Of a stretch of DNA of 64,000 nucleotides, positions 768-64,000 are shown one piece after another; position 1 is the stretch's first letter; the number at the start of each line of letters is the position of its first letter. Under the pieces are notes generated by a model. It was not told the origin of the DNA. It searched no databases and saw only the letters and a list, made by a program, of their open reading frames with translations. Source of the DNA: an uncultured Christensenellaceae bacterium (GTDB lineage Bacteria; Bacillota; Clostridia; Christensenellales; UBA3700); NCBI GenBank assembly GCA_944381325.1, contig CALWKS010000002.1:188949-252948 (forward strand), written 5' to 3'. The position numbers and the translations under genes are program-made.

Positions 768-858
768 GCAGAGATGGCTGAGCTGGCCTAAGGCGCACGA
801 TTGGAAATCGTGTGTACGGTAAAACGTACCGAGGGTTCGAATCCCTCTCTCTGCGCCA
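768..858 (+). tRNA. tRNA-Ser (GGA)
   Basis: Acceptor stem GCAGAGA/TCTCTGC, anticodon loop TTGGAAA, long variable arm, GGTTCGAATCC T-loop, G discriminator plus encoded CCA. Confidence 0.97.
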
Positions 859-31224: not shown

Positions 31225-31239
31225 AGTTTTTTTACTTCT

Positions 31240-34707: not shown

Positions 34708-34882
34708 ATTTTAACACAATGATTAAAATATTACAAATCAAATTAATATTTTATATAAATTATTTGTATTGTAATAATTTTGCGAATTATCGGTCAAAAT
34801 CGGATATTTTGCGGCGATTTTTTCTTTCAAGGCGAAAACAATTGCAATAAAATGAATTTTGTCAGAAAACGGAGGTAACAAT

Positions 34883-35916: not shown

Positions 35917-35979
35917 ACTACACGCAAAGGTAAGGGAGAATTTTACCTTTATTTACGGAAAAATTGTGAGGTAAAGACT

Positions 35980-36498
35980 ATGGCTAAATACAAAAAATGT
36001 CCCAGATGCGAACTCAACTGGATTCCCGTCGAAGAGGACTACTGCGACGTATGCAAGGCTGAACTCAAAATCGGCGGTGCAACTTTGCTGGACGACGAGG
36101 ACGAAGACGAACTCCTCTGCCCCGTCTGCCACACCAACTATCTCGAACCCGGTGAAAAAATGTGTTCTGAATGCGCACGCAAGGCAGGCAAAAACGGCGC
36201 TGACGAAGAATACGAAAAGGACGACCAGGAAGAAGACGAAAACAAGGTTTCTTTTGACGAACTGGCTGAAGAAGAAGCGTGGAACGACTTTGACGAGCCC
36301 TTCGACGACAACGAAGACTTCGACAGCGACGACTACGGCGACGCATTCGACGAAGAGGACGAGGAATCTGAAGAGGAAGAAGACGAAGAATACAAAGACG
36401 ATCTTGACGACGATTTCAATTATGATATCAACGACGTCGAAGACGAGGATGACGACGAGGAAGAAGGCGGCGACGATGACGAGGACGACGACCTGTAA
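35980..36498 (+). CDS. Tandem C4 zinc-finger protein with a very acidic C-terminal tail
   Basis: CPRC-x11-CDVC and CPVC-x11-CSEC, then about 100 aa dominated by D/E; GAGGT RBS; own promoter and terminator. Confidence 0.85.
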   Translation: MAKYKKCPRCELNWIPVEEDYCDVCKAELKIGGATLLDDEDEDELLCPVCHTNYLEPGEKMCSECARKAGKNGADEEYEKDDQEEDENKVSFDELAEEEAWNDFDEPFDDNEDFDSDDYGDAFDEEDEESEEEEDEEYKDDLDDDFNYDINDVEDEDDDEEEGGDDDEDDDL

Positions 36499-36525
36499 TT
36501 CTCTGCACTGAAAACAAAGATCGAC

Positions 36526-36556
36526 AAAGGGCTGCAAAACGCAGCCCTTTTTCTTT
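36526..36556 (+). terminator. Intrinsic terminator
   Basis: AAAGGGCTGC/GCAGCCCTTT plus T run. Confidence 0.8.
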
Positions 36557-36721: not shown

Positions 36722-39700
36722 TTATTTTAAAGTCAGAGAACCGTAAAATCCGTTCTGAGTTGCCGCGGTAACCGCGTCTGCCCCTACCCAGCCGAACAGC
36801 TTATCGACTGCGTTCAGCTTAAAGAAGTTGTCTGTGATAAACAATCCTTTGCCGTCCACCTTAACGTATCTTTCGTCAAATACGTACGCTTTGATTACGG
36901 GGACAAGGCTTTCTTCATTCCACTCTGCCGCAGTGCCGTCGGTGTTTTCTATAACAGTGTTTTCCTCTGCTCCGTCCGCGCCTATGACTGCGCTCTCGGT
37001 AATGCTTACGCCGTCAGACGTACTGCTCACGCCCTCGCTTTCAGCGTTTTCAGATATACCTTCTGCAATGCCGCCTTCATCTACGTATGCCCTGTTGACG
37101 CTTGCACCGCCAGTGATCGCGCCGTAATTGACTGCCGCGATACCGCCTGTCTTTGCCGCCGCGCTGAGAATGCCCTCAAACGCGCAGTTTTCAATGCTTC
37201 CGTAATTGTCGACCGCGATGCCGCCTGCAACTGAATTTTCTCCGCTTGCGATTATCACTGCGTCTGCTACGGTGAGATTCCTTACTGTCGCGCCCTCATC
37301 GATTCTTTCAAACAATGCCGCGCTTCCGCTTCTTTCTATGAGCATATTGACAAGCGCCTTGCCGTCGCCGTCAAACGTACCTTTGTATCCCTGAACATTG
37401 CCTTCAGCGTCGCGCCAAGCAAGCATATCTGTAACATTTCCGCCAAAGTCGATATCCTGAGTGAGCAACATGTCTATCGCGTTGTAATCGCCAATGCCGC
37501 CCTCGTTGTCGATCCACTTATAATAATCGTCTGCGCTTGTCAGAGTGTAGAACGCCGCGCCGTCCTTAAGCGCCGTGCCGAAATAGCGGAATGTAACCGT
37601 GTTATCCTGAGCGGTGAGCACGAAGTTGCCGCCGTCAAGCAATGTCGGAAGTTCAGCCGTGCAGTAGCGCGAGTATTCGGCTGTAGTGTAATACTTTCCG
37701 TCAGCGCGTTTTTCGAGCACTCCGTCAGCTACGAGCTTATCGTAGAAGTTTTCATCAAAGCTTACGGTAAGTCCTGCCGCTACTTCTGCGACAAGTCTGT
37801 CGTAATTCTCAGCCGAGATGCCCATTGCTTCAGCTTCTGCCTGAGTTACGCTTACCGTTCTGCCCGCTTCAGCTACGGGATCGAGCATTGCGGAATTGTA
37901 AGACTGGTCTTTGCCTACGACGTAATCGGCATAAACGCCCAGATCGACAGGTCTGATCGCACCCGATACGGCAATTGCGTTTTCTTTGAGCGCGAACGTA
38001 GCTTCGTCAGCGCCTATCGTCATATCCGAAGGCGCGCTCCAGCCAGCCGAATAAAGCGTATAATTGTCTCCGTTCTCTCCGCCGAGCACGGGTCTGTAAA
38101 CGATCGCACCGCTGACGGTAGCCGTGTTCTCCTGATCCGCTGTTACGTTTGCACTGAGATTGTATACCTTTATGAAGGTAAATTCTTCAAGCTGCTCTGC
38201 AGTCAGAACTTCTCTTGCGTAATCTTCGTCAACAAGCCTGCTCATCGCTATCATAAGATCGCGTACGTCAAACTGTCCGACTGTCGCCCCAGACGTAAAT
38301 TCAACCACATTCTCGTCATTGCCGACTTTTATAGGCTGAGTTTCGTAAACTTCTTTGCCGTCCTCGCCTGTCTTGCTGACTATGCCGTAAAGCACTCCGT
38401 CCTTTGAAAGAACGCTTCTTGTCAGCGCGCCAAAACTTGCAAATCCGAATTTCTCAGCCGCCGCTACCTGCGAAGTGGTTGCTCCTGCGCCGTCGTAATA
38501 ATTGCCGTCAACGTATCCTGCCTCTTTTCCGTCAGACTCAACTCTCAGCATGCCCGCGCTTTGAGTATCGTAATACTTTGTAGCGGTTACGCCGTTGGCA
38601 TCGACCTGCTTCGGGTAAATGACGAGAGCAATACCGTTTGCCACTTTCGCGCCATCTCCCGAGAAGGTGTATTCCGTTCTCGAACCGCTGTCGTAAGTAA
38701 CGTCGCCTATCGTCTCGCCGCTGCCGCCGCCGATAATGCCTTCAATACTGGCCTTGCTGTAATAACCTGCTTCAGTGCCGCCTACCGAAAGTTCTCTGGT
38801 CTCGGAAACTCCGCCCGTGGTTACCGTTATCTTGACCGTATAAGTCTGGGCAACGCCCGTATATACGACCTCTTTAATGCTGGTCTCTACGTCTCCTTCA
38901 ACGTCAACAGTGCCGCCGCGTACGCCGATTGCGACCGTGAACGCGTTGACTCCCGAAGTTATCACCGCCGTACCTTCGAACTGAGCAGCTATATCTCCTG
39001 CCGCAAACATAGCGACTATGCGGTTGAGTGCCGAGCCTATATTGTCTGTGCCTGCCGCAGTGCGGTAATTTATGCCGTAACCGTCCCAGATAAATCTGTT
39101 ATAAGGAGCGATCGCTTCAACAGCGATATAACCTGCGCCGTCAGAGTAATCCACATAATAAGACTTGTTATACTCGCCTGCCTCGGTAAATACGTTGTGC
39201 TGAATTCCGCCCGTAGTGTAATCGTCGGCGGTTGCGAAGTAATAGCCGATATAGCCGTTTGTGTACGGCTCGAGCAGACTGAGCTGACCGCCTGCCGCGC
39301 AGTCCGCCTCAACGTAAGAATATACGTTCTGAGCAAGTGTCGCGCCGCTTGCGAAGAGAGCCGAAACGCCTGTTACTCTTCCTGCTGCAATAGCCACGAT
39401 AACGCCGTCTGCGCTTCCTTCAGACGCGCCTGCGACATAACCTGCGCCTGCCGCGCTCACGCTGTAATTGCCGCATCCTGCGCTCTCGTTGACTCTGACC
39501 GCAACCTTGGTCAGAGCGCCTGCGTTGCTTCCTGCAATCGCGCCCCACGTAGCTCCGCTTGCCTTAACGTTTGCGGAATAGACGAAGCTGGAATCTTCTA
39601 TCCTTCCGTCCGCGCCGTTTACGCCTGCGATACCGCCTGAATTGCTCGCGCCGCTTATCTCGATATCGCTTATAAATTCGACAGACACGTTGGAAACAAC

Positions 39701-42700
39701 GCCGTTGTTTATGCCGACGAGACCGCCTGCAGAAGCCGCGCTCAACGCATTTTCAGGCATAAGTTTTACGGTCAGATTGCTTATCGTGCCGTTGTTTACC
39801 GCAACCAGCATGCCTGCCGCGCCGTTTGTCGCGGTCTCAGCCGCACCGCCTGCGAGAGACAGCGTGTATCCTCTGCCGTCGAACGTGCCCGTAAATACCG
39901 TATCGGATACGTCTGAAAGATCTGCGCCGTAAATGCTGTTGACAAGATAGAAATTGCTGTTGTTCTTTATAGCTTCTTTGAGTTCTTCCTCAGTTGAAAC
40001 GGCTATGCCTGCGCCTGTCTGAACGGCGTTGAGCTGACCGCTTTCAAGCTCTGAAGAAGTGGTCGAATGATTTGTTGACTTGACGCTTTCGGTATTGCCC
40101 TGAACAACGAAGGTATATCTGTCCGTAGCCGTCGCGTTGTCGTGTCCGTCAAGACCCGTGAACTTAAACGTGAGAACGTAAGTTCCGCCCTGAGCCGTGT
40201 AAGCGAAATCCGTGAACAGATATCTGCCGTCAAGCGAAATCTCCGCCGCACTGTCTGCGTTGTTGACGTACATCGCAAACACCGTCAGCACCGCCTGATT
40301 GAGCTTTGCAAAATCTGAAGAAGAATCGAAACTGCTCTCGCTCCAGATCTCTCCGCTCATAAGTTTCTGAATTATGCGATGCTGAGCTTCAGTAGTAATA
40401 TCCGCTGTCTTTGCAAACAGGAAATCGAGTCCCTGCAATGCGCTTATGCCGACAGCGTAACTGCCGTTTTCGCGTTCAGCGACAAGCACGTCAGCCTGCG
40501 TTACCGTATAATCTGTAACCGTAATCACGGTGGCTTCGGTTACAGGCGCGCCTTCGTAATAAAGCACGTAGTTTGCCGCAACGCTGTCCTGATTGAGCGC
40601 GTCAGCCGATACCGCAACTCCGCTTACGAACGGCTTTATGTCAAGCGTGCCGTAAGTGCCTGCAAGCGAAGCGTTGAGTCCGCTGCCGTCGCCGATGATA
40701 ACCGTTTCTCCGTCGATACCGCCGTTTATTCTGAGCGAGTAAGCGCCGTCGAACTTCTTGCTTTCAAACGCGTCGGAAGAAATGTTTATCGGACGCGGAG
40801 TGATCTTGTAATATGCCGTTTCGTAGGTGAGCTCTGTTTCGTCGAACGACACAACGCCGAAAGCGTCTTCCTGAGCCGTGAACACATAATTTTCTCCGTC
40901 AAGCGCAATACCGTTGACGTAAATCTGATATCCCGGATCATCGGTAACGTTGACGGGTACGAAATACTCTTCTTTCTGTTCTTCTTCGTTGTAACGCTTA
41001 AAGACTATGCCGAGAGCGGACAGATCTATTGCGCCGAACGAAGACATATCTATCGCGTTGCCCTGCTTGTCTATCGCGTAAACGCTCCAGCCGTCCGTAG
41101 AATATGCGGGAAGAACGCCCGTGCCGTCATACTCCTTTTCAAGCGCGTTCATAACAACGTAAACTCTGTTTATCGACTGTCTCGTTATGATAAAGTCGAC
41201 CGTATGGGGCGCGCTCATTGTGTAATTGCCCTGATCTTTGAGGGTAAGCGTTATCGGATAAGTGCCCGCATTGTGAGCCGTCGTTCCTCCGCCGAGAGTA
41301 GCAGTGAACGTTATCACGTCGCCGTTCTCGAAAGTAACGGTGAGCGTGCCGTTTGCATTGACAGCAGCCGCGGTAAAGCCGAGCGCGCTTACGGTAACGC
41401 GGATCTCAGACGCGGTATAAGTTCTTGCTGAATTGTACTCCGTTCTGTTGCTCGTTATGCCTGCCACGTTCACGTTGCTGAAGCTTCCTGAAGTAAGCTC
41501 GAGCGGAGTTATCGTGCCGAGTCCTTCGATGATCGCGTACATTACCTTTTGTACGGTTTCAACGCCTTCTTCGTCGATAACGGTTTCTTCAGATTCGCCT
41601 GAGTAGTCAGCCTGAACGCCGTAGTTGGATAAAATCATTTCTCCGTCAGACATGACGTATACGGCGTAATAAGTCGTATCTTTATAAGTATAAGCCACGC
41701 CGTCCGAGTGTATCGCAACGGTCTTGCCCGTCGCCGCGTTTTTATCGTCGTATCTCCATTTAGCTATAACAAGTCCTTCGTCGCCTTCCAGCCAACCGTT
41801 GACAACAGCATTGTCGACCAAGTAGTCGCCGTCGTAAACCTTGGTTACGTCAGATACGGTCAGCGGTGCGGGAATAACCGTGCCTGCGCCTATAAAAGTC
41901 ATATTGTAGATAAGACCGTTGTTTACTACGGGGGTGTCGTCATAACCCAGCTCAGGATCGGGAACGTAATCCTCGTCAAACTGAGCGGGAAGCAATACGG
42001 TTTCAGAAGCCGCGATGCAATAATTGCTTGCAACGTCAGCCGTGCCGTCCTCTCCCACGACGAGAAGTCTGTAGTACATAACGGGCGCGGCAGTATCGAA
42101 ATCAGCGTAATATCCGAACGGGGTAAAGTCAGTCAGAACGTCTTTGCCTTTGCCCACCGCGGCATCGACAAATCTGCCCTGCACGCGCAGGATAACGGGA
42201 TTGCCGTCTGCGTCGGTTATCTGATTGCCTTCCTTATCCGTAAACGCAACGTCGGCAGAAATTTTCTCTTCTTCCTCGCCGTAGTAAACAAGCGTTTCTG
42301 TTCTGTCATAGAACTTGACGACAGAAGATATCACGATTTCCTGCGGCACTATATAATACGTGTACACTTCAGGAGTTTCGACGGGTTCTTCTCCGCCCGT
42401 TTCGCCGCCGCTTTCTCCACCCTGGTCTTCGCCTTCAGAGCCTTCGTCTCCGCCCGCAGCCGCTTTATCAGCATTTACAAGGATTTCGCCAAGTCCCGCG
42501 ACCTCGTAGTTGTCGAACGCTATGCCAGTAAGATACATCTCATATCCGCCGACCTGAGACGGATTTTCAACGACTTCTCCTCCCTGCTTGTAAATCACAT
42601 TGTCTGCATTGTACACAACGATTTCGCTTCCGCTGCCGAGGTTTGCAATAACTTCGGGAAGTTCAGCGTCCTGTTCAGAGCCGTAAACCTTTTCAAACGT

Positions 42701-57700: not shown

Positions 57701-58903
57701 GATTACCCCGGTATAGCTCTTGGAAGAGTGTCTCGGCGTATTATACAATACGGTATAATTCTCGTAGGTTTCACGATATTCGGCATAAAGATTTACGCCG
57801 CTTACTATACCGCCGTTATTGATCGCGGCAACTCCTCCTACCACACCGCTCGTAATGCTGTTGCTGGGTACTTCTATATAATCGTCCCACGCCCAGCGTC
57901 CTCTAATTGCGATTTCACTTCTGAACAATCCCAGCACGTCGTTGACAACTACTTTACATCCGTATATGCTGCCTGTCTGAGAAGAATCAGAAGGATTTAC
58001 TCCGTTGTATCCCGCAATACCTCCGACCGCAGAAAATTCCTGATAACTTATATCTCCTCTGTCTGAAGCATTGCTTCCGTTGACATAGTATTGGCTGGGG
58101 ATAAAACCGTACTTGATCTCGTTCTCCATCGTACAGTTGTAGATAACGCCGAAGTTTATTCCTGCTATACCGCCCATCATTACGTTTCCGTTCCAGGGCG
58201 ATATATAAATTGCCTGAATGTTGCCGCTTCCGCCGTCCACTCTGGTTACAACGGTATTCAGATTTTTTATCGTGCCGTAGTTGACAGAAATTACATTGCT
58301 GAGACCGTAAGCATCCACACCGCTGTATATCTGAACGTCGTAATTTCCTTCTCCACCTGCAGTATCTATTCCCCACCAGGACAGATAACTGTCTCTGCTT
58401 CCGATAGCACTGTTTATTTTCTGCAGGTTGTATGCGTTTGAGTTACCGTGTTTAGATGTTATCGTGTATCCGTTTCCGTCTAAAGTCGCATTTGCAGGCA
58501 AAACCCTGTTAGTTACGGGTTTTTCGCCGACCGTAAAGTTGGCTGTAAGATAGCCGTAATAAGTCGTACCCGGATTTGCGTTTGCGGTAGCAAGAAAACT
58601 GCTCAGCGCTGATTCACTGTTGATAGCATATCCGACAGCGCCTGAAGGTATAGCAGGGGTTTTGCCGTTATAGATAGAAGATCCGTAGCCTCTGTCGTTG
58701 AGACCGAAGATCTCGTCGCCGTCCCCGCCTTCAGCTATATTGCCCGCGCCTGAATTGTCGCCCGTGCGCGTATAAAGAAAAGCCGCCAAAGCGCATGACA
58801 GCACAAACGCGACTGCGATGATTACAGCCGTCGCGGTGAGCCATATCCTGCGTTTTGAGGCGTTGTTTGTCATAATTTCCATTATCTTATATTGCGCTTT
58901 CAC
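36722..58903 (-). CDS. Giant (~7390 aa) secreted/surface protein with GLUG-type beta-helical modules and a YDG/MBG-like stalk
   Basis: Uninterrupted 22-kb ORF; N-terminal basic + hydrophobic segment; dozens of GG(I/L/V)(A/V)G.N.G.I repeats; many K(T/E/V)(Y/F)D(G/N) repeats in the middle third. Exact start uncertain (GTG 58903 or a nearby ATG). Confidence 0.9.
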   Translation of the reverse strand: MKAQYKIMEIMTNNASKRRIWLTATAVIIAVAFVLSCALAAFLYTRTGDNSGAGNIAEGGDGDEIFGLNDRGYGSSIYNGKTPAIPSGAVGYAINSESALSSFLATANANPGTTYYGYLTANFTVGEKPVTNRVLPANATLDGNGYTITSKHGNSNAYNLQKINSAIGSRDSYLSWWGIDTAGGEGNYDVQIYSGVDAYGLSNVISVNYGTIKNLNTVVTRVDGGSGNIQAIYISPWNGNVMMGGIAGINFGVIYNCTMENEIKYGFIPSQYYVNGSNASDRGDISYQEFSAVGGIAGYNGVNPSDSSQTGSIYGCKVVVNDVLGLFRSEIAIRGRWAWDDYIEVPSNSITSGVVGGVAAINNGGIVSGVNLYAEYRETYENYTVLYNTPRHSSKSYTGVITGITNITSSPIVLELNGQNWTFAPSTVTNITLETDYLYIKAEAYDMTDLSRGSYGVMNSAQYPEAGNYAGIVCGQGTTNSNVNFVASYGGDLANAQNVNFRTWNASELNSSQPITSADIPKFGYGSNNSNDYINEIASVSTRFEGQRTEKNSTDLTSVGATVSYIWDAEQQSDGGWVSGLRQNINFDNVSGIGAGNYFIYGTQSYVNGAPSYATGSATYESANVTYGGLAVIPSAASTAVEYDYSLLMQNFADSAAFDAFAGVNAGANFAYAYANSLVLNKAHTLDNSSASQRELRSWKTIDGGLNQITVTGVNNNAVNTDGINAVSDFIAVNRGNILNLSLVYQNARGTVTAADTTAFGFVAGINYGTIAPAVVSTSAVELNANNADALYALGGAVGYNTGIMSGITVTNAGDLKISGSARQTYLGGVVGVNTGAGVLRTAVVNGNYDVTVQATASSVYGNYVGGFLGAGVNSGSVSTEGNVLTLTAEQSEPFANWLYAGKQRIQSDENSYTGLFAGLIASSATYDQTTNPYIKGLVAAAPDLDEAVGWFTPQKGVMSLVGYVTGSIGASGKYVAQDLVQGQIYTVQDASDAFVSKILTGVSWTPESAGNIYRFTVTSLAYSGNWALTPYGAGYQNFVSYGTPVNAGETFSTPWTYSNNNNGSYSYVFDTGLYVQNNDVNSNPDYLAPVVGVKLDYRMNLHSGVSAGDTTNADDALTLFLSGESGGFEHMNPSNGYKALCAGASGAYADNSGTPWTVDGSRAIVFNKNNGLDGGDGLRVNVSGTSSAFESVWDEESQSNVSAEFIAVNNSRITNIILTVDGQRTYSFNDALIYSYLIGVNNGTVDNCSVMLSGSATLTNTGKSVYGAAIGVNNGIYSGGSVVISGAANLSGGDISYAGGAVGVNRGTADGASVNYDGGELSLENNGGTLAVLGGVIGLQDSSALSEIKAKGYGAVLTVNGIGAAGGVIGAANAGSNGNTVVSGLIDAAQTTLSNIVNEVYGMRINAAAGYKGLVAATLGEGDLREGALSGIAAHYPDEVESYALPWTTTATDTLAMYGYGTAVQTEGLLFKVSDFSNDGSADFLTERTINVNGADKSFTFLRSQITALDQITLTAKYYYYNSEGALTTDNTYSGAPSLASGIYTTAVNGTYASSDKYVPVLDVLIDYSVIIYDKQNQELVDFMRGDGAGVYAGAHKASLANNASFSVDGTTSSLRAESSEKKILIGSINNTLAVTGTLPTALYNGETVAGGFFAVNRAEIMNLSLTAGEELRASASALGLLAGVNEGKLTNVNATVIGASATVSYFGAVAGINTADVTGAMANLSGTYTVTSADVFAGAAFGSNSGAISGVSVNFDSAALIANPTGIAAAGGVVGMQNGGSVSNTGTAGKTASMKVTAGTGYMGGIVGIINTGAQNTQIAGLDLAPSVMSGVYAGAYTFKAYGGYRGLIAGAVGSIASGSVKGAAAHYYENGYTAGDYKIPWFTDNADTVSMYGYNTEDASAEYATGVLFKLSDYSDDGDADFVSERTLVSNANSANWSAPLSYFNGAYDINIRLSYIRYNGDVISTETLSSDSYTASGTLSYTASGDYLNGTGTYVPTLEFFATYSVDIRQGTEYNNYVNEADGIANSMLYCFVDGKGYNQLYAGAKTGYVKENIQIYKPANGYVEMNEGKVLDGGNNMLLMAYPGGYVLQTNDRENDNTSSGSGGYIQTEVGGSEKGAVGGLMAVNRGTVRNFNIEIRTTSYILSTYTSNLVDSAAVGMLAGVNYGDISGITFNNSTQTAAITVSGAASTEVVYGGIVGINAESGRVSDLTVNKYSAVNIDGAAKAVYGGLVGENYGEARTLTLNNFSNNTIGQVEEGIYGGAVGSNYALVSGVNVTVGTETKQSDYLSRLGQSPQSRTIYLTAQELAVWGGAVGYNSGTLSAASLLAHINYGMSAGGGDVSAGGLVGINDGGTLKGLKATGWGGFYVYSSAINSTSTTSVFVGGLVGSMNADGAARIGFIDFKNTSSKATISDSVFALSGGMVTMNSRALGLPRYGYVTGALAESYAAVPEGAVSNTFWSIPDKLTGVEGEEAEVLPAFHGGNSQYPTYISVFGKAPSDWIDSQQQATNEAAFALNSYGFALVDSDDNPINYLTMDADISGGVLTLNVHKPSGIMFIETPDFSASVGGSGGSGSGTVGAGGAADQTLTVTNAGNTGIGYVTFSFESNVYALTDSAYGAYTQYMVLSFLSTKPCGTVDGSYAGYYQYTMVSSDEGRSLGDAIYRLYQVWSGATEMRIQGTGKTVEITTVPSQPLVLGEGKLFDGGQDSGNKIVVTSAFENNIAAYTFGNDTEGKEQKYLVVSEFLALNYGTFTNVEIELSGTDGGRDIFRNANDVIANAANMGIDFDSNSLTGFIYGMLVGVNEGVVSQLRNYSFDRIIELDSNAGAKYNSIFGGMVGAQSGADAVIADIDNLTFGTAERAGGITMKGGANLVAAGGVVGIAIDGRIENLAVTLTANSFISVEGAHNAATVGGVVGDLRGVLRKVEFDSEYQSVMKISGTNANGTAALANIAGVINTFEFSENTASIEQVKVIGVGYLYNGIDESGTVTTSSTKLYTAGVVALGSNYSVLTADSADPDVQEIVAAYGEIRPSKLDSVYIGFEGYVRAKANTRVGMIAARFLDGITSETGTDGTETVTKNINYDNIKNLVWQTTYEGDTAWTTSVNYADYTETFSSNKAVAVMGYAPVTVDSSDPDLRGAGMRMWLTNNLYSIDITTADMVATWTEAGKLSVSITGGLGWQSINLYLAYFDESGADIASRIKQIKDLGALGAASSAFITVDVATALADIKASAAAFPNGIYVLKTTYNEVYIYDAQQLMTFMSSGTDTTKGLASSDSNYTQYANANIGIIANDLNVDYATQGTGNKSGHYYATAVTMRSDKILEGNGNTVTITTSGNIHSAVLDDKGNTPAGALLEDEYFWDYIGGLNTFTQNDLNQINTDYSIGIRAGGLFLGRNLGTIQNIEFNVPNSITIDNHDYARWFDVITQDSWRNYGTSLFAGIVTAVNAGTIDNCTLTLGENVVVNSLRATCDGPQLQSGYTNNLNYKINTIAVNGGFAGFMYGTDSAQSYISNCTVNLSEGSGIRVESQVSSFSWSGRSDSVYAYAGGIVGWLTDNSTVYNVTINGSGTMTAWGELNMGGKSQGFSSGNKVTSAGSIVGLNSDHYTYTVSSKDNEFGNIDGVICNWNGAAYFLTTGNNNIFYSGTNRVNYYIGAQLAGVAEENTLNNIYFMYGIENYKTFHMDNWYYGSNTATRMANSDFKDKYEYIRTQAYNLLSDPTFPYDTIKVGYSDTADSGGSAVVLASRSNGEVVYNDAFTFEKYSNYNTASDSSWVSGAPNFSVFGSVGSQGAMSVINDYFPRITRTLDSGGNKDLDYTGARAAAMMTSDGTADWNRLFKPNNVYIYEVAFGNSIDEGTELDMNDPDTSASLTFQTKNITSDVAINITLSSSSMGAQFVWEIYETWRYADNSVTISSTPYYNNVRSLEQAKQNNNFSRVFDRNNDGADFTFTYVMGMAVKIAMDDSRYYYDETEGVFYDSVAKTYDGAVINDPVLYYADENNNPINRPDMGLGEVSAGLMSPSYYRDSADGKSTVKVSKTATDKAGAYRIRITFSSEGGENSKINTTNRTIMFSDSDYIDIYTVVLPKGVTQNNVSVSKTYDGTTAYNESETSFGNNQIRGDVIELSTGVYSQKDAGSGTIFMATYSDFMFRYAVGGEIKEAVIKLFEGTGDTANYAPATASYSGNITLTDGATNFYALPSGNYTYSGTIRQKEISSHDLSLYMWGEEFGIGNMNNRVYDALVDYDTEAFEEKSKILSQTVAYRQSGNRFYLEINGYASGEKVHFYITFTNEEGVTSESVKDKARYKVYINIADSPNFIFTDGNELLESLNIGELLISEYAIQEAQVTYVITAGFLSKIFDNDGKIPFNFDINNLRIVAQGGYEVQPDEYTLNYGALFTAAKGDAGKNPLTAKDAGEYDIYVKISNFTSQNYTLADMTVKFVDKSGNQISYFVLPREIKFDSVTKEFDNTLNAEASYTEYTYEKGYEPVSGTNDVFAMKYASLDAGADISVEFTGTGKLTLNGKTYNTLSVVSGANRDKSNYCVSALSARVGNITPVLVTVESVSMIYNNGINVDYRKEGTSVVIKKEKDGSIVNIYPSATFDTKNAGVKKNVRFDTTNTIIDGTTYALLENTRYYTGNLAESGEGFAGNYYVSKTTWNVGEIIKNTLSKADILDNITIVQTNGNVNYSGTAYLFENVGGKKYQYHYGYYVGFEIDDSATVIEGDLLKDHIDVRITNDTNKTNGYVGSYTLELYIKSGDYDWDEDVSDADKKKAFSVTKQELRVGNLEATLSRTEYNYTASGATSINPVLVLTDLDGRRMSSAEGGLNISKSAYTNNNEFFGGNYNSGQHLNVGDYTFTVTPVFVGDDAINYNYSGVKLLEFSVLPANISLVTATKEFDNTTSFTTTGNKAVFTTSGALDPFTPAGTFANKNAGTGKLNLTFETTVINGTEYKLLVDAEDGKPTNNTFTNTRGTITKYTISQAELNTYIMGWVKDMTERQQVMLKGGATLEYRSDADAAYMAEHFQFSVSGMQYGFTGGAASNALTISQGGSTYTMYFTITLSDGTNQYVFAPGDNVSAYMLAAGNYTVSLELSHMNFELDLGAGNGTFVIEKQQISGGDGSGSANVFISLDGDFSYIYGESGFNLPSVADGKFLYTMRIIDKYTGKVSATYTQADGVIGSIEFTTAADSEEFLTSLDGPLFVGGYFVWASGFAEEILVNYAIPEGARIAVYTAGTPVPEAPDPEEGEQGGEEGGEGEGGVVTIPSLPAEAAYFILPRNLNITSVEKTYDGNTSFAGATLNSDAIASDNVTADLLDGVYESANANYDSTGTTYIKGNKGSDYLLINVKEITVDGIVYYVLSDGGIIGNYCLQGEVQTGVMRVLGAKIKRVNVDASALSLTSGTFEKVYGSEQDAELPEVIANLGSGSEIVVYNADNVIYKQGGEVVENPSQVGGYEMYLTGIAFDNYEVAGLGEILVNADKAAAGGDEGSEGEDQGGESGGETGGEEPVETPEVYTYYIVPQEIVISSVVKFYDRTETLVYYGEEEEKISADVAFTDKEGNQITDADGNPVILRVQGRFVDAAVGKGKDVLTDFTPFGYYADFDTAAPVMYYRLLVVGEDGTADVASNYCIAASETVLLPAQFDEDYVPDPELGYDDTPVVNNGLIYNMTFIGAGTVIPAPLTVSDVTKVYDGDYLVDNAVVNGWLEGDEGLVIAKWRYDDKNAATGKTVAIHSDGVAYTYKDTTYYAVYVMSDGEMILSNYGVQADYSGESEETVIDEEGVETVQKVMYAIIEGLGTITPLELTSGSFSNVNVAGITSNRTEYNSARTYTASEIRVTVSALGFTAAAVNANGTLTVTFENGDVITFTATLGGGTTAHNAGTYPITLTLKDQGNYTMSAPHTVDFIITRQSINRVYVVMNALEKEYDGTGVLPAYSTDGWSVYAIDKQGNAIDMSSFGAIDLSALGIVFKRYNEEEQKEEYFVPVNVTDDPGYQIYVNGIALDGENYVFTAQEDAFGVVSFDETELTYETAYYKITPRPINISSDAFESKKFDGAYSLRINGGIDGETVIIGDGSGLNASLAGTYGTLDIKPFVSGVAVSADALNQDSVAANYVLYYEGAPVTEATVITVTDYTVTQADVLVAERENGSYAVGISALQGLDFLFAKTADITTEAQHRIIQKLMSGEIWSESSFDSSSDFAKLNQAVLTVFAMYVNNADSAAEISLDGRYLFTDFAYTAQGGTYVLTFKFTGLDGHDNATATDRYTFVVQGNTESVKSTNHSTTSSELESGQLNAVQTGAGIAVSTEEELKEAIKNNSNFYLVNSIYGADLSDVSDTVFTGTFDGRGYTLSLAGGAAETATNGAAGMLVAVNNGTISNLTVKLMPENALSAASAGGLVGINNGVVSNVSVEFISDIEISGASNSGGIAGVNGADGRIEDSSFVYSANVKASGATWGAIAGSNAGALTKVAVRVNESAGCGNYSVSAAGAGYVAGASEGSADGVIVAIAAGRVTGVSALFASGATLAQNVYSYVEADCAAGGQLSLLEPYTNGYIGYYFATADDYTTGGIQHNVFTEAGEYNKSYYVDYSDGAGYIAVEAIAPYNRFIWDGYGINYRTAAGTDNIGSALNRIVAMFAAGDIAAQFEGTAVITSGVNAFTVAIGVRGGTVDVEGDVETSIKEVVYTGVAQTYTVKITVTTGGVSETRELSVGGTEAGYYSKASIEGIIGGGSGETIGDVTYDSGSRTEYTFSGDGAKVANGIALVIYPKQVDANGVTATKYYDTQSAGMLRVESDGKEAGYVDGNYYDGAGATTSQVAAAEKFGFASFGALTRSVLSKDGVLYGIVSKTGEDGKEVYETQPIKVGNDENVVEFTSGATVGQFDVRDLMIAMSRLVDEDYAREVLTAEQLEEFTFIKVYNLSANVTADQENTATVSGAIVYRPVLGGENGDNYTLYSAGWSAPSDMTIGADEATFALKENAIAVSGAIRPVDLGVYADYVVGKDQSYNSAMLDPVAEAGRTVSVTQAEAEAMGISAENYDRLVAEVAAGLTVSFDENFYDKLVADGVLEKRADGKYYTTAEYSRYCTAELPTLLDGGNFVLTAQDNTVTFRYFGTALKDGAAFYTLTSADDYYKWIDNEGGIGDYNAIDMLLTQDIDFGGNVTDMLAWRDAEGNVQGYKGTFDGDGKALVNMLIERSGSAALFERIDEGATVRNLTVADAVIIASGENSVAGGIAVDNYGSIENCAFEGILSAAAKTGGIAAVNYGAITGGASVNRAYVDEGGIAEGISENAESEGVSSTSDGVSITESAVIGADGAEENTVIENTDGTAAEWNEESLVPVIKAYVFDERYVKVDGKGLFITDNFFKLNAVDKLFGWVGADAVTAATQNGFYGSLTLK

Positions 58904-58913
58904 TGCGCTGTTT

Positions 58914-59135
58914 TCAGTTTTTGTTTTTTCTTTCAGTCTCTGCGTCGGGACGTTCGAGCACGTCCGACATAAATTCTTCCTTCGTTATCTCTCCTCTCAG
59001 ATACGCCCTTTTTCTGTCCAGCTCTTCCTGAGTGAATTCCATTCCCTCAATTCCCCATATAGCCACAAGGTCGCTTATCTTTTTCTCTATTTCCTCTTCT
59101 GTCAAAACTCTTTTTTCTTCGTTCATATCTTTCAT
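58914..59135 (-). CDS. VbhA-like (Fic antitoxin family) small protein
   Basis: ...AIWGIEGMEFT.EE.....AYLRGEIT.EEF pattern; AAGGTG RBS; tightly spaced within the operon. Confidence 0.65.
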   Translation of the reverse strand: MKDMNEEKRVLTEEEIEKKISDLVAIWGIEGMEFTQEELDRKRAYLRGEITKEEFMSDVLERPDAETERKNKN

Positions 59136-59145
59136 TCAGCACCTT

Positions 59146-59733
59146 TTATTCTCTTACGAATTCCGACGTAACGCTTACGGTAACGTTTGCGTTCATGATC
59201 TCAGGCGGAAGCAGTTCATCCGTAACGTTAAATCTTATTGCCAGAGTCAGGTTGCCTGAAGTCCCCGCCGCGAGAGTATCAAAAGAATAAGTTGCGGAAG
59301 CGTTGCTCCAGTTGTAGACGGGAGTCTCTCCTGAGTACAGGCAGAAATCCAACTTGCCCTGCATATACGTCTGAAGCTGCTGAGAAAGTTCTTTCCCGTC
59401 CTTGTCTCTCCAGACCGCCGAAGAAGCGTAAACAATGATTTTCATAGAAGTAACGCCTTCTTCCGCGTCTCCGATAACGTAAGGCACATCTATTCTTACG
59501 CCGTCAGAATCGGAAATAATCCCTTCCGCGGTATTGTCGTTTGTCGCCTTAACGGGAATAAGCGTGCCCTGCGTTTCGCCCACGCCTATGCTTATGCTGA
59601 ATTTGTCGTTGGAATCTACAGTGAGATAAGAGGAATCGCTCTCGTTCGGAAAAAAAGCGAACGCCGCGCTGATACCTGTCAGCGCGATAAGAATTAAAAG
59701 AATTATAGCTATGACGACAGTCTTTTTTTTCAT
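59146..59733 (-). CDS. Secreted protein with a SipW-class signal peptide (TasA/CalY/BsaA-like)
   Basis: MKKK-hydrophobic-GISAAFAFF; beta-rich body with LAAGTSG.LTLAIRF; ends VTVSVTSEF. Confidence 0.65.
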   Translation of the reverse strand: MKKKTVVIAIILLILIALTGISAAFAFFPNESDSSYLTVDSNDKFSISIGVGETQGTLIPVKATNDNTAEGIISDSDGVRIDVPYVIGDAEEGVTSMKIIVYASSAVWRDKDGKELSQQLQTYMQGKLDFCLYSGETPVYNWSNASATYSFDTLAAGTSGNLTLAIRFNVTDELLPPEIMNANVTVSVTSEFVRE

Positions 59734-59773
59734 TCCCCTTACCCGACCTTGTCCTAACTTTATTTATATTAAT

Positions 59774-59802
59774 ATAATATAACTAAAAGCGCGCGCTGTC
59801 AA
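59774..59802 (-). promoter_or_regulatory. Sigma-A promoter for 59733, the VbhA-like gene and the giant gene
   Basis: TTGACA-gcgcgcgcttttagtta-TATTAT (17-nt spacer). Confidence 0.7.
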
Positions 59803-60101
59803 TACCCATAACCAATATTTTACATTTAAAATCGAAAATTTTAAAAAATACAAATAATTTCTAACAAATCTTTGCGGTAATTCTATAAAAATCCATTCCC
59901 TTAAGATCAAAACCGTCTTATTTTTATATGCAAGGCGTTTCGCGGCAAAAAAATCAGAATACTCTATTTAAGTTTTGCATGTGTTTTAAACACAGCAACA
60001 ACTCAAATTTCAAACAGCGTTTTCGCAAGAAGTCCGTAAAAATAAAAAGGCTTTGCACTCAGGCAAAGCCGTAATTCAGGATACGTATCACGTTTTTTGC
60101 A

Positions 60102-60746
60102 TTATCCGAAGCAAAGTTCGCCTTCACTCACGCTTCTTCCGCCGAAATCTACGTTGCTTCTGTCAAGGTTGATACAGCGGTAAAAACACATTCTTCCCAT
60201 CGAGAGCGCCCCTCCGCCCGATACGAAAGTTACGCTTTTAAGGCTGTCGCAGAAAGCGAAAGAATAGTCGGCAATGCTCTCAACGCTTGACGGGATCTCC
60301 AGTTTTTCAACAAGTCTGAGACCGTCGTACTGTTCTACAGTGCCCATTGCGATCGCTTTGACGGGTATTTCGACAGACTGCCCCGCGTTGTTTTTCACCT
60401 TTACGGCAGGAGGGATTTTAAGCGTGGTAAGTATGCCGTTGTAGCCTTTGACAGTCGCAGACACCGCTCCCGTTATGTCGGTATCCCCAGCGTCGAAAGC
60501 CGAAAAATCTTCTCCTTCCATGCCCTTTTGTCTGTATTCTGCAACAACAGAATTGCCGTCTCCGAGGTCAATTTCCAGGACGAGATATCTGAAAGAAGGG
60601 TCTTCCCATTCTCCCGTTTCGGTCGTTGCAGGCGTAGAGCCTCCGTCCGAAGTCGTCCACACGGCATAGGCAGCCGCCGTGATGCCCGCAATGAGCAGCA
60701 CGCAAACGACCATAAATACCGTTAATCTCGCAAACTGACCTTTCAC
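60102..60746 (-). CDS. Secreted protein with a SipW-class signal peptide and BspA-type LRR
   Basis: GITAAAYAVWT cleavage-like motif; LEIPSSVESIADYSFAFCDSLKSVTF LRR; probable GTG start at 60746 after AAAGGAG. Confidence 0.7.
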   Translation of the reverse strand: MKGQFARLTVFMVVCVLLIAGITAAAYAVWTTSDGGSTPATTETGEWEDPSFRYLVLEIDLGDGNSVVAEYRQKGMEGEDFSAFDAGDTDITGAVSATVKGYNGILTTLKIPPAVKVKNNAGQSVEIPVKAIAMGTVEQYDGLRLVEKLEIPSSVESIADYSFAFCDSLKSVTFVSGGGALSMGRMCFYRCINLDRSNVDFGGRSVSEGELCFG

Positions 60747-60816
60747 TTTATCTCCTTTCCCGCACACTGCTTTTGCGCAGTTCATTGCTTATAAACAAAC
60801 TTTTTTACGGCTTTTC

Positions 60817-61668
60817 TCAGACGTAATCCGCCGCCGCTACTATCTCGAACTTAAATCCCGACGCCTTGAAATTGTCGTTGCTGAACGGGAAAGTCCTGGC
60901 GTATCCTTCGTCCGAATAAGTTATCCTGATGCATATCGGGTTTGCCTTGCCGTATATATAATCCGACACGACTTCGCTCTGTCCCGACGGCAGATTGGGG
61001 CCGTATGTATAATGCAGTCCGTTGCCTTCCTTCGCAAATGTGCCGTAAGCGTAAGGCGGCGTTTCTGTAGTTATCTTTGCATACTCAAGCGTAAAGAACT
61101 TATCCAGATTGACTTTATCCAGCTTTATATATCTTACCTTGCCGTTCAACGTGCCGTCTGTCGTATAGATAAACGCTGTGCTGCCGTCCTCTGGCTCTGT
61201 AAATATCTCGTTCACCTCTCCGCCGTTTTCAACGGTTTCCACCTTGCCTATATGCGATTTCTGCGGGTCGTATCCGTCGAACAGAGAAATTATGCTGTCC
61301 ATAGTCTTGCCGGCACTCAGCATATAGAAAGTATCGGATACCTCTATCAACAGAGATGTAAATTCAAACCTCAGACTTAAATCTCTGTCGCCCTGAAGCA
61401 ACATCTTGGTGTGATAATAAGCCTGATAAGCTCTGTCGTCGTCGGTATAAGGCACTCCGTTTTCGTCATAGCCTTTCTGCCCGTTGTACTTTTCGTTCAC
61501 AAGCGCGCCGCTTTCGTCGTCAAAAACGACTTTTATGTAAGTTCCTGCCTGAAGGACTGCCGAGCTGCGCGTTTCTGTAGAAGCGGAAAACCAGGCAAAA
61601 GTCAGCGCCAGCATACAGAATACCAGCACGAGCATAAGCACGGGCAATAATACTTTTGCGCTCTTCAT
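60817..61668 (-). CDS. Secreted protein with a SipW-class signal peptide (TasA/BsaA-like)
   Basis: hydrophobic-ALTFAWFS..T....LQAG motif; C-terminal FKFEIVAAA strand; AGGAGGGG RBS. Confidence 0.72.
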   Translation of the reverse strand: MKSAKVLLPVLMLVLVFCMLALTFAWFSASTETRSSAVLQAGTYIKVVFDDESGALVNEKYNGQKGYDENGVPYTDDDRAYQAYYHTKMLLQGDRDLSLRFEFTSLLIEVSDTFYMLSAGKTMDSIISLFDGYDPQKSHIGKVETVENGGEVNEIFTEPEDGSTAFIYTTDGTLNGKVRYIKLDKVNLDKFFTLEYAKITTETPPYAYGTFAKEGNGLHYTYGPNLPSGQSEVVSDYIYGKANPICIRITYSDEGYARTFPFSNDNFKASGFKFEIVAAADYV

Positions 61669-61686
61669 TGCCGCTTCCCCTCCTTA

Positions 61687-62448
61687 TCAGTCTTCAGTGT
61701 GAGAACCGTCTTTTGTTTCTCCGCCCTTGTTTTTCAGATATTCTTCTACGGCTTCTTTTTTAAGCCGCTCTATCTTTTCATTGTCGTCTTCGTCGCTTTC
61801 AGGCTTTGCTTGCATGGTGCTTTCAAGCTCTTTCTGCTTTTTACTTTTTGCGCTTGCTATTGCAAAAACAGCAATCTGCCACACACCTATGGCAATCAAA
61901 GGCAGGACTATTATCAGCAAAAATCCCGTCTTGCTTCTCAGCACGTTCTGCAAGCCTGCCAAAGCCTCGCTTTTGCCCAGCACTCTGCCCGTAACGTTAT
62001 CTAGCGGCACGGGCGTTTCGTCTGCCGTTTCTGCGGCGTCACCCTTAGTGCGTACGTACCATCTGCCGTCGCTTCCTTCATAAGGCGCAACTACTATTCT
62101 GTGAGTTACCGTGTACCCTTCCACAGCTCCGAAGCCTTCGGGTGCGGTAAACGTGATAACGTCGCCTTCTTTAAGCTGAGACGGGTCGTCGTACAGCTTT
62201 TCCGGGTCGACGACTTTTACTATTATCACGTCGCCTTTGTCGTATGTGCCCGTCATGCTTTCGGTTACCACGACAAAAGAACGGTATCCGAAAAGCGTAG
62301 GCTCTTTGCCTGAAAAATACTGTGCCATAACAGTTACGAGACAGCCGAACACAAACAAGAATACTGCCGTAACGATTATATTTATAATCAACACGGGTAT
62401 GGAAATTTTTTTCTTTTTCTCAGTCTTCTCCATTGCTGTCGTCATCAC
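61687..62448 (-). CDS. sipW: Signal peptidase I, S26B (SipW/archaeal type)
   Basis: VVVTESM (catalytic Ser), GDVITF, VTHRIV (His), TKGD...D..PV...V.GRV; N- and C-terminal TM. Confidence 0.88.
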   Translation of the reverse strand: MMTTAMEKTEKKKKISIPVLIINIIVTAVFLFVFGCLVTVMAQYFSGKEPTLFGYRSFVVVTESMTGTYDKGDVIIVKVVDPEKLYDDPSQLKEGDVITFTAPEGFGAVEGYTVTHRIVVAPYEGSDGRWYVRTKGDAAETADETPVPLDNVTGRVLGKSEALAGLQNVLRSKTGFLLIIVLPLIAIGVWQIAVFAIASAKSKKQKELESTMQAKPESDEDDNEKIERLKKEAVEEYLKNKGGETKDGSHTED

Positions 62449-64000
62449 CTTTCAGGCTATTGTCTTCGCTCTTTAAAGAAGAGTCTGCGTTTTCATTTTT
62501 ACTAGCATTTTCCGCATTCCGGTCTGTGTTTCCGTCAACGGTCAGCGCGCTGTCCGCTGCGTTTTCATCGGAATTTTCTTGCGCTTTCAGTTCTTCCGTC
62601 TTAGCCGTATCTTCAGCTATTTCGACTGTAGTCTGCATATCTTTATTCTCTTCTACGTTGTCCGTGTTTTCGTTAAGCGCGGCAAGCATAGGCGTTACTG
62701 AAAGGTCTTCCACCTCTCCCAGGTCTTCCTGCGACGCTTCGTCAACCGCGATCTCCTGCATAGATTCCTGCTTCAGGCGCATTTCTTCCTCAAGCTTTTC
62801 AAGGCGCTTTCTATCGCGTTCACGCTGTTTTTCAAGCGACGCGCGCTCTTTTTCCGCAATCTTTTCCTTTTTGGCAAGAGAACGCTCGAGTGCGAGTTTT
62901 TCCTTTTCCATTTCTTTAAGCATCTTCTCTTTCTCGATCTCGTTCTGACGATATTGTATCTTTGCGATATCCGATTTCTTCTTTGCGCGCAATGTGCTTT
63001 CGTTCAGAAGCACGCGGTCGATAGCCTTGTTGATGCGCGCAAGCTGCGCCTTGTCCACCTTGCCTTCTGTCTGCTGGAACAGGTTGCGAAGCTCTGCGAC
63101 GCCGAATTCGTCCGGAAGTTCTCCGTCCTCTTCCTCGTCTTTGTTTTCCTCTTCCTGAGGCGGCTGTTCTTCTTCCGCCTCTCCTTCTGTATCTTCGGGA
63201 GAAGGAGTTTCCACCGCTTCGGGAGTCGGCGTCTCCTGAGGCTCTTCCTTTTCCACCTCTTTTTCTTTCTCCGCTTCCTCTTTCTCCTGCTCGGTCATAT
63301 TGGATTCGTCGAAGAACAACGCGTCTTCCACCTTTGCGTTGACGAGTCCTTCCATAAGAGAGTTGCAGATAAACATCATATCGCCTACGGCCGTTTCAAC
63401 GCCTTCGTCGACAGGCATTTTTTCGCTTACATTTTCGACAGAAAAGCCCATCTTTGAATAGCTTTCAATAAACTGCCACAGCACGAGAGCTTTCTTGAAG
63501 TCAGGGTTTTTCAGTATTACGTTGGTACGCGTGATAGGCGGTCTTACAGGCGCGCTGTTCACCATCTGCTTTGCAAACGGAGACGATAAGAAGTCTGAGA
63601 TAATGCGCTGAAGCTTGGTTACGCGCTCAACTATCTTCAGATCCGCACCCTGAATTTCCTCCTCAACGTCAGACGGGACAGAGCCTATAAGTTCCAGATT
63701 GTAGAATACACGCGTTTTGCCCATATAGAAATTGGCGTCGACGTCAAGCTCTAAGATATTGTCGTTTACGTACGCCTTCTTTATTGCGTCCATACGGCGC
63801 GCAACGAAGTTGGAAAGATTCTTCAAAAGCGTATAAATAAAGCGGTTTTCGTATATCTCGAAGCTCTCTTCTTTTGTCGTGTTCAATATCTTGTTGGGCG
63901 TAACGTTGCCCTCTTTGTCCACGCTTGCGATCATATTGGTATGCTGAGCAAGATGCTTTACCGACTCGGTCGAAATTGCGCGTGCAAGAGAGATATCCAC
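62420..64000 (-). CDS. DUF2357-like protein (5' partial) with an acidic/coiled-coil C-terminus
   Basis: ESVKHLAQHT, PNKILN..KEES..IYENRFIYTLL and VRPPITRTNVILKNPDFK.A..LW motifs; start lies outside the window; 3' end overlaps the sipW start. Confidence 0.7.
   Translation of the reverse strand: MDISLARAISTESVKHLAQHTNMIASVDKEGNVTPNKILNTTKEESFEIYENRFIYTLLKNLSNFVARRMDAIKKAYVNDNILELDVDANFYMGKTRVFYNLELIGSVPSDVEEEIQGADLKIVERVTKLQRIISDFLSSPFAKQMVNSAPVRPPITRTNVILKNPDFKKALVLWQFIESYSKMGFSVENVSEKMPVDEGVETAVGDMMFICNSLMEGLVNAKVEDALFFDESNMTEQEKEEAEKEKEVEKEEPQETPTPEAVETPSPEDTEGEAEEEQPPQEEENKDEEEDGELPDEFGVAELRNLFQQTEGKVDKAQLARINKAIDRVLLNESTLRAKKKSDIAKIQYRQNEIEKEKMLKEMEKEKLALERSLAKKEKIAEKERASLEKQRERDRKRLEKLEEEMRLKQESMQEIAVDEASQEDLGEVEDLSVTPMLAALNENTDNVEENKDMQTTVEIAEDTAKTEELKAQENSDENAADSALTVDGNTDRNAENASKNENADSSLKSEDNSLKGDDDSNGED

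Follow-up and report, generated by a model that had tools for sequence, protein, structure and literature searches.

Introduction

SipW-type signal peptidases are encoded in operons such as tapA-sipW-tasA of Bacillus subtilis, calY of B. cereus, and sipW-bsaA of Clostridium perfringens. To our knowledge, the tasA, calY, and bsaA operons contain no nucleoside triphosphatase (NTPase) gene, and we know of no TasA-type system that needs one. Type IV pili and type II secretion machines combine a peptidase dedicated to one special class of signals, several pilin-like paralogs, and a hexameric NTPase on the cytoplasmic face of the membrane. Here, we analyze a locus of ~35 kilobases (kb) from an uncultured Christensenellaceae bacterium (genome of 1.99 megabases in 8 contigs), in which genes for SipW-type peptidases and exported proteins, one of them of 7393 amino acids (aa), are clustered with a McrBC-like GTPase pair. 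The distal part of the locus lies in a stretch of 64,000 nucleotides (nt) (G000:C2:188949-252948), hereafter the window; the remainder lies in the adjoining ~9 kb past the window end, designated L001, and positions there carry this prefix.

According to two reports (PMC9245690, PMC9715654), archaeal bundling pili and threads, which do not belong to the type IV pilus family, consist of β-sandwich subunits that are processed by a signal peptidase and linked through donor strands. Closer to the present locus is a class named CoCoPALM by Bell et al. (2024, eLife; PMC11090510) in three sentences and a supplementary figure, with its treatment deferred to a later paper. In these passages, CoCoPALM comprises McrB-like GTPases with an NxD motif, fused to an FtsB-like transmembrane (TM) and coiled-coil part; its McrC homologs are usually coiled-coil proteins, and genes of the signal peptidase family are associated with it. 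A literature search for CoCoPALM and for McrB, signal peptidase, pilus, and coiled coil returned, in this sense, only Bell et al. and the corresponding preprint. An earlier note on the window, which proposed a fiber or adhesin assembly system, knew of no described system with these genes together. Since the locus fits CoCoPALM as presented in the cited passages, the combination is not undescribed; the class already has a name in print, and what is new here is added detail and an unusual cargo.

Results

Gene content and relation to described systems

The open reading frame (ORF) listing contains all seven ORFs singled out in the earlier note, each in its place on the minus strand and in the order proposed: a McrC-like gene with a DUF2357 domain, sipW, the genes of three small proteins (p283, p227, and p195), a 73-aa ORF, and the gene of the giant surface protein. 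Names beginning with p or u give protein length in amino acids. Upstream of the window edge, on the same strand and in this order, L001 contains the rest of the DUF2357 gene, the gene of a second SipW paralog (SipW2), and those of the GTPase, u276, u321, and an EAL-like protein.

In our view, this is very likely a CoCoPALM-type locus. Three of the four features named for CoCoPALM in the cited passages of Bell et al. were found: a GTPase whose N-terminal part contains a TM segment and a charged helical stretch, a DUF2357 homolog of McrC, and signal peptidase genes; the two genes of the SipW type flank the McrC-like gene. The likeness to that description extends to the long, charged, coiled-coil–like tail of the DUF2357 protein and to the Bacillota hosts. 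Beyond what the CoCoPALM text cited here contains, the locus has two SipW paralogs of active type, cargo proteins with TasA-type signals, a profile-level link of u276 and u321 to TasA, a motif common to the peptidase tails, and a cargo that includes a leucine-rich repeat (LRR) protein and the 7393-aa protein.

As to function, the locus on balance appears to direct the SipW-dependent assembly of a surface fiber or adhesin. We infer fiber formation and the role of the GTPase from what was observed, namely, the protein families and their linkage, the peptidase residues, the signal junctions of u321, p283, and p195, and exported sequences free of sortase signals. As in TasA-type operons, a SipW gene is followed by genes of exported proteins with a ..T[FW]A[WYA]F.. 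junction and without a sortase signal, and profile comparison relates u276, and by way of u276 also u321, to the TasA domain. Unlike those operons, the locus has a second peptidase as well as genes for a McrBC-like GTPase pair and a giant adhesin, and the Peptidase_M73 and TIGR04088 models give no score. The archaeal pili and threads differ in their hosts and in having no McrBC-like module, and polymerization is a proposal in the present case. The comparison with type IV pili and type II secretion is an analogy: the proteins are unrelated, and the signal would be cut after the hydrophobic helix rather than before it.

Overall, the earlier note's observations are partly confirmed and its interpretation is partly supported. 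Its functional idea was reasonable, with the GTPase, SipW2, u276, u321, and EAL-like genes lying beyond the DNA on which it was based.

GTPase and McrC-like partner

The GTPase has 510 aa with an AAA_5 domain at residues 216 to 366. Its best matches in the Protein Data Bank (PDB) are E. coli McrB (E values of 8e-8 and 1.9e-7), and it matches the NCBIfam McrB model with an E value of 4e-8, far under that model’s cutoff of 637 bits. Residues 49 to 86 form the sole hydrophobic segment above the TM threshold; reading of the sequence places a glycine-rich hydrophobic stretch before this segment and a charged helical stretch after it. The N-terminal membrane part is conserved to the same degree as the NTPase domain. 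The motif residues N-N-D-D, invariant in all seven aligned homologs, can be read as NxD followed by D, which agrees with the description by Bell et al., and also as NxxD in HMMER’s ungapped alignment to E. coli McrB.

The McrC-like gene runs off the window end: positions 62,420 to 64,000 of the minus strand hold its 3′ 526 codons, and the full gene, encoding 607 aa, lies at L001:1369-3192 (minus strand), with its start ~243 nt past the window end. Pfam DUF2357 scores 24.5 bits for the part in the window and 38.4 bits for the full-length protein (cutoff of 23.3). The DUF2357 N-domain is followed by a Glu-rich tail, residues 311 to 607 being 22% Glu and 10% Lys by composition. A library scan of the full-length protein found no nuclease family, and a profile of its N-domain searched against the PDB gave only a chance match to EF-Tu (E value of 0.36). 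The gene overlaps the start of sipW by 14 to 29 nt, according to the start codon, and the two genes overlap or abut in relatives likewise; both the DUF2357 assignment and the overlap had been recognized in the earlier note. The pair is thus like E. coli McrBC in that the latter’s GTPase domain is the best solved relative of the GTPase and DUF2357 is the N-domain of McrC, and unlike it in having no PD-(D/E)xK nuclease and, in place of the DNA-binding domain, a TM and coiled-coil segment, in being anchored in the membrane, and in having secretion genes as neighbors.

Two SipW-type signal peptidases

The sipW gene (61,687 to 62,448, minus strand), named as such in the earlier note, encodes a 253-aa signal peptidase I of the archaeal/endoplasmic reticulum type (TIGR02228, 74.9 bits; cutoff of 51.85). 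With the equivalog model of Bacillus SipW it scores 77 bits, below the cutoff of 190, and it is therefore not an equivalog of the Bacillus protein. It has two TM segments and a cytoplasmic tail with an ..EEYLK.. motif. SipW2 (L001:3230-4540, minus strand; 436 aa) is 31 to 34% identical to it in tblastn and matches the NCBIfam family with an E value of 4e-9. In an alignment of 120 homologs, the catalytic Ser-Met, His, and Gly columns are invariant and the Asp is present in 103; both paralogs of the locus keep the Ser-Met, His, and Gly-Asp columns.

The cytoplasmic tails of the two paralogs have a short motif in common, ..EEIKRRAIEEYL.., which is present in 42 of 120 SipW-like ORFs from several orders and is a candidate docking site. 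Tail length is very variable among the homologs. In SipW2, the tail has a Glu-rich stretch followed by ~100 C-terminal residues that are Ala/Lys/Thr-rich and resemble histone H1.

Signal junctions and mature domains of the exported proteins

N-terminal signals were compared with a Peptidase_M73 reference alignment of 21 bona fide proteins, which were taken from a phylum-wide search and have N-termini like ..GGATFAWFTD. In hhalign, these N-termini were matched by those of the u321 family (95% over 32 columns), p195 (94.9% over 32 columns), and p283 (90% over 44 columns, extending into the first strand), and p195 matched the u321 family itself (94.6% over 49 columns). The u321 N-terminus ends in ..TATFAWFSTSD, and the corresponding junctions are ..TFAWFS.. 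in p283 and ..AFAFF.. in p195. When an N-terminal profile of the u321 family, built from other genomes, was searched against the 11,267 ORFs of the genome, it retrieved u321 (E value of 1.5e-17), p195 (0.0019), and p283 (0.0028) and no other ORF below an E value of 0.1. A profile of TasA-family N-termini ranked p283 at the top of the genome (E value of 0.0045), with u321 at 0.066. The SipW-type motifs that the earlier note had read in four window proteins are thus borne out for p283 and p195 by genome-wide profile matches. Neither profile detects the other two, p227 (..AAYAVWTTSD) and the giant protein (..ALAAFLYTRTG). Their likeness to the signal is suggested by reading by eye, by conservation in relatives, and by clearer N-termini in large proteins that occupy the equivalent position elsewhere: in other lineages, proteins of 0.9 to 2.5 thousand aa with ..[SF]AW[FY].. 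N-termini are encoded directly after the second SipW. A loose regular expression for the signal, applied to large downstream proteins, matched at 19 of 39 loci against a background of 29% (128 of 441) and was discarded as too unspecific.

The case for TasA-like mature domains comes from two proteins encoded past the window end. u276 has a basic N-terminus, a single TM segment, and a β-rich domain. Its family matches Peptidase_M73 at 92.7% over 136 columns and a signal-free TasA profile at 84% (hhalign); in controls, 30 column shuffles reached at most 5.5% and the reversed profile 0.6%. The match between u276 and u321 is 97.2% over 133 columns and includes a common ..W.(E/D)G.D.. motif. The AlphaFold2 (AF2) model of u321 is a confident β sandwich (pLDDT of 84.9, pTM of 0.84). 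Because of the u276/Peptidase_M73 and u276/u321 profile matches, the locus can be said to hold remote members of the TasA superfamily, which lie outside the window: profile comparison supports a TasA-like mature domain for the u276 family and, through u276, for u321. The AF2 model of p283 is likewise a confident β sandwich (pLDDT of 83.5). Against the u276 profile, p283 reaches 9% and p195 49%, the latter being suggestive only. TasA-like mature proteins, which the earlier note expected among the three small window proteins, were not borne out by profile comparison or by the p283 model: in p283 and p195, the likeness to TasA appears limited to the signal, and p227 seems to have not even that.

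Several results weigh against the assembly of a fiber or adhesin. TIGR04088, the model that the earlier note had put forward for the exported proteins, matched no protein of the locus at an E value of up to 1 in hmmscan or up to 10 in a genome search, and, as described above, the N-termini of p227 and the giant protein are missed by both signal profiles. PF12389 (Peptidase_M73) has no match in the genome, and single-sequence Pfam searches with Peptidase_M73 matched 0 of 33 members of the u276 family and 1 of 69 members of the u321 family (E value of 0.2, misplaced). Without their signals, u321, p283, and p195 reach only 3.5, 0.8, and 1.9% against the signal-free TasA profile (hhalign). Foldseek searches of the PDB with the p283 model returned weak, generic matches to domain III of Cry proteins, jelly rolls of capsids, and CUB domains, and those with the u321 model returned weak matches to PA14 adhesins, ClfB/SdrG, and carbohydrate-binding modules (best E value for the two models of ~9e-4, TM-scores of at most 0.22); TasA was not among the ~50 PDB matches listed. 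Two further points of this kind, the match of the GTPase to a defense-candidate model and the possible separate transcription of p195 and the giant gene, are considered below. The u321 profile had no match among PDB sequences at an E value of up to 10. A complex prediction for three copies of mature u321, made without controls, scored 0.00 and is evidence in neither direction.

A rival explanation is that the exported proteins stay monomeric and that the locus is a dedicated route for the secretion and anchoring of surface proteins (lectin-like β sandwiches, the LRR protein, and the giant adhesin), either cleaved by SipW or held by their N-terminal helix, with the GTPase as a regulator. The best Foldseek matches of u321, all of them weak, are monomeric adhesin and lectin domains (Cea1A, Epa1, ClfB, and SdrG), and the matches listed for the p283 and u321 models include no TasA; moreover, the long basic N-terminus that precedes the TM segment of u276 resembles an uncleaved anchor, and the giant protein has one TM segment and no other anchor. 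We nevertheless regard this explanation as rather unlikely, given that profile comparison places u276 and u321 in the TasA superfamily, that several paralogous small subunits are encoded per locus (120 ORFs in 37 loci), as in pilus systems, and that u321, like major pilins, differs strongly between most of the close relatives.

In the fiber or adhesin assembly that we favor, SipW1 (the sipW product) and SipW2 would cut u321, p283, and p195 after ..TFA or ..AFA, for example, between ..TFA and WFS... The released β-sandwich subunits would build a sortase-independent fiber or layer rooted by membrane-anchored u276, and p227 and the giant adhesin would be displayed on it. The membrane-anchored McrB-like ring and its McrC-like activator would gate or power export or assembly, and the conserved tails that both peptidases have in the cytoplasm may serve the GTPase as a docking site. 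A more specific version, which we offer tentatively and consider doubtful, is that CoCoPALM loci specify a novel, NTP-driven type of surface fiber machine of Gram-positive bacteria, in which an exapted, membrane-tethered McrBC GTPase ring would sit on the tails (..EEIKRRAIEEYL..) of both SipW peptidases and couple GTP hydrolysis to the cutting, extraction, and polymerization of TasA-superfamily subunits, with a hypervariable u321 fiber, a u276 root, and a lineage-specific cargo tip, here the LRR protein and the 7393-aa adhesin. If the proposed function is true, a DNA restriction motor has been rebuilt into a part of a protein export or fiber assembly machine.

Independence of sortase, as proposed in the earlier note, is supported by the sequences of this dedicated locus of SipW-type peptidases and exported proteins: the LPXTG-like motif [LIS]Px[TAS]G is absent from all six exported proteins (giant, p283, p227, p195, u321, and u276), and none of the six has a C-terminal TM segment or anchor.

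Conservation, linkage, and distribution

A scan with an alignment of the GTPase, using one genome per species, found at least 568 matching stretches. The best 80 loci were retrieved, and many of these are truncated at the end of a contig; their hosts are metagenome-assembled genomes named Christensenellales, Oscillospiraceae, Ruminococcus, Acutalibacteraceae, and Bacilli. In 74 of these 80 loci, the DUF2357-like gene lies beside the GTPase gene, and 72 contain SipW-like genes (110 ORFs, usually two per locus), so the coupling to a DUF2357-like protein that the earlier note had proposed is borne out. Genes like u276 were found in 45 to 53 of the 80 loci and the EAL-like family in 16 to 30, and the related u321/u276 family accounts for 120 ORFs in 37 loci. 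The window cargo is rarer: p283, p227, and p195 occur in 8, 7, and 6 of the 80 loci, respectively. Homologs of p283 form 28 protein clusters in total and are restricted to the genus and family. Of 41 related genomes, 16 have such a homolog: 12 of the 14 from the same genus, 3 of the 10 from the family’s other genera, and none of the 16 from other families of the order.

Six genus-level relatives have the same gene order of u276, GTPase, SipW2, McrC-like gene, sipW, p283, p227, p195, and giant, which answers the synteny check proposed in the earlier note for the order of p283, the LRR gene, p195, and the giant gene. Two relatives at a greater distance have a rearranged core whose genes are still together. 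The locus has a fixed position beside leuS in relatives. These linkage and occurrence counts across loci and genomes separate a conserved core, consisting of the EAL-like gene, u321, u276, GTPase, SipW2, McrC-like protein, and sipW and lying mostly just past the window end, from p283, p227, p195, and the giant protein, which are genus-specific cargo.

Among 400 genomes sampled evenly across the class, 18 have a GTPase homolog (E value of at most 1e-40). Together with the at least 568 matching stretches, this makes the locus type common in uncultured gut Clostridia and Bacilli, and if the proposed function holds, it would therefore bear on the attachment of many gut commensals to food particles, mucus, or each other. 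To this the window adds a clear example of lineage-specific cargo, in which a conserved core has been fitted with an LRR protein and a 7393-aa adhesin.

The GTPase is 88 to 97% identical within the genus and at least 56% identical across the best 80 loci. In the genus relatives, u321 is only 27 to 34% identical in four of the five compared and 73% identical in the fifth (G006); judged from these comparisons, its divergence is the pattern of an exposed major subunit. In the genome studied here, u321 is present in one copy. Three relatives have two convergent paralogs of u321 with 99%-identical inverted repeats of ~170 to 228 nt (L029:4506-4675/6758-6928, L048:6268-6495/8396-8623, and L074:5900-6114/8042-8256), which span the upstream region and the signal peptide codons, while the gene bodies differ. 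Such repeats suggest that the exposed subunit is switched by inversion or that the genes undergo conversion.

Window cargo and its transcription

p283 is encoded at 60,817 to 61,668 and p227 at 60,102 to 60,785, both on the minus strand. p227 has an N-terminal TM segment and BspA-type LRRs (LRR_5, 34.5 bits; cutoff of 27.7), which confirms the LRR assignment made earlier. Judged from the N-termini of relatives, its true start is probably the GTG at ~60,746. Downstream, p195 (59,146 to 59,733, minus strand) is followed by the 73-aa ORF and by the gene of the giant protein, which occupies 36,722 to 58,903 of the minus strand and encodes 7393 aa from a GTG or 7383 aa if translation starts at a conserved ATG at 58,873.

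The giant protein has a single TM segment, at residues 19 to 46, and no C-terminal anchor. Its N-terminus is conserved among relatives and has a plain A-x-A site. The matches in its C-terminal half are weak: YDG at 27.7 bits, and still weaker YDG and MBG_2 matches in a Pfam search of the protein in eight pieces. Residues 1 to 1000 gave a weak Atlas lead to Glug/Peptidase_M26_N clusters (0.91); this and reading by eye lend weak support to calling the protein GLUG-like. A self-BLAST at 1e-10 detected no internal repeats. A full-length, open homolog is present in G006 (52 to 62% identity), and homologs of 30 to 35% identity were found in four further genomes.

The earlier note placed an internal promoter in this part of the locus, and consensus scans agree: between the p227 and p195 genes, there are a terminator-like hairpin followed by a T-run (60,049 to 60,070, minus strand) and, ahead of p195, a TTGACA-17-TATTAT promoter-like site with 11 of 12 consensus positions (59,774 to 59,802, minus strand). 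With both elements between the two genes, separate transcription of p195 and the giant gene becomes possible, and the two may therefore form a transcription unit of their own. A G+C-rich stem-loop at 36,526 to 36,550, ~170 nt past the stop codon of the giant gene, is a candidate transcription unit end; it was scored on the plus strand, and its use on the minus strand is assumed.

Taken further, these elements would make p195 and the giant gene an independent unit that merely adjoins the CoCoPALM core and uses the general Sec/signal peptidase I route. Besides the terminator-like and promoter-like sites before p195, this explanation would account for the plain A-x-A site in a giant N-terminus missed by the signal profiles and for the confinement of the p283/p227/p195/giant set to the genus and a small number of related genomes (16 of 41 genomes; 8, 7, and 6 of 80 loci). 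We find it quite improbable, as p195 has the same signal junction as u321, the giant gene follows p195 in all six genus relatives examined, and large proteins with ..[SF]AW[FY].. N-termini directly follow the second SipW elsewhere.

The 73-aa ORF (58,914 to 59,135, minus strand; E/K-rich) lies 10 nt from p195 and giant alike; relatives have a shorter p195-giant spacer. The suggestion in the earlier note that it is VbhA-like was not confirmed: it scores 19.9 bits against a cutoff of 25.9, and its neighbors are p195 and the giant gene, not a Fic gene. It has no counterpart in 86 related loci at an E value of up to 10 and is therefore not counted in the system. Among the genomes compared, it is specific to this one; it probably lies outside the system and may have been inserted recently or be a small gene peculiar to the strain.

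Descent from restriction systems

The GTPase matches the PADLOC defense-candidate model PDC-M26A with an E value of 1e-36; no other protein of the locus has a PADLOC match. That the McrBC-like pair is an antiphage or abortive infection module like its CoCoNuT relatives, with the peptidases and exported proteins as membrane effectors or sensors, is highly improbable: its descent from McrBC restriction systems, this strong PADLOC match, and its patchy distribution (18 of 400 genomes) would suit such a role, but a nuclease domain is missing from the McrC-like partner and a DNA-reading domain from the GTPase, the GTPase is conserved in a way unlike fast-turning defense genes, the site beside leuS is fixed in relatives, and the cargo is of the adhesin type.

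Upstream genes and neighboring DNA

At the head of the locus, an EAL-like protein is encoded at L001:8376-9086 (minus strand; Pfam EAL, 29.9 bits; cutoff of 31.3). A gene in this position hints at control of the locus by cyclic di-GMP. An EAL-related family, often longer (median of 464 aa), is present at the same end of the locus in 30 of 80 loci. Consensus scans gave a perfect TTGACA-17-TATAAT site ahead of u276 and a site with 11 of 12 positions ahead of the EAL-like gene. At the gathering threshold, Rfam matched one transfer RNA (tRNA) only in the window and L001, and at an E value of up to 1 it had no match in the upstream region, so that no riboswitch was found. A search of sequencing runs listed no RNA run that contains the stretch.

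On the other side, a spo0A gene (Spo0A_C and receiver domain) lies on the opposite strand at 34,859 to 35,674 of the window (plus strand), ~1 kb past the 3′ end of the giant gene. In Bacillus, Spo0A stands at the top of tasA operon control; the adjacency seen here may be chance. Between the giant gene and spo0A, there is a 194-aa ORF with a TTG start (35,953 to 36,537, minus strand), which is overlapped by ORFs of the opposite strand and has no Pfam match. Farther away, the window contains an ATP-binding cassette transporter operon (ATPase, permease, and binding protein; 29,405 to 32,211, minus strand) and a tRNA gene (768 to 855, plus strand), both unrelated to the locus.

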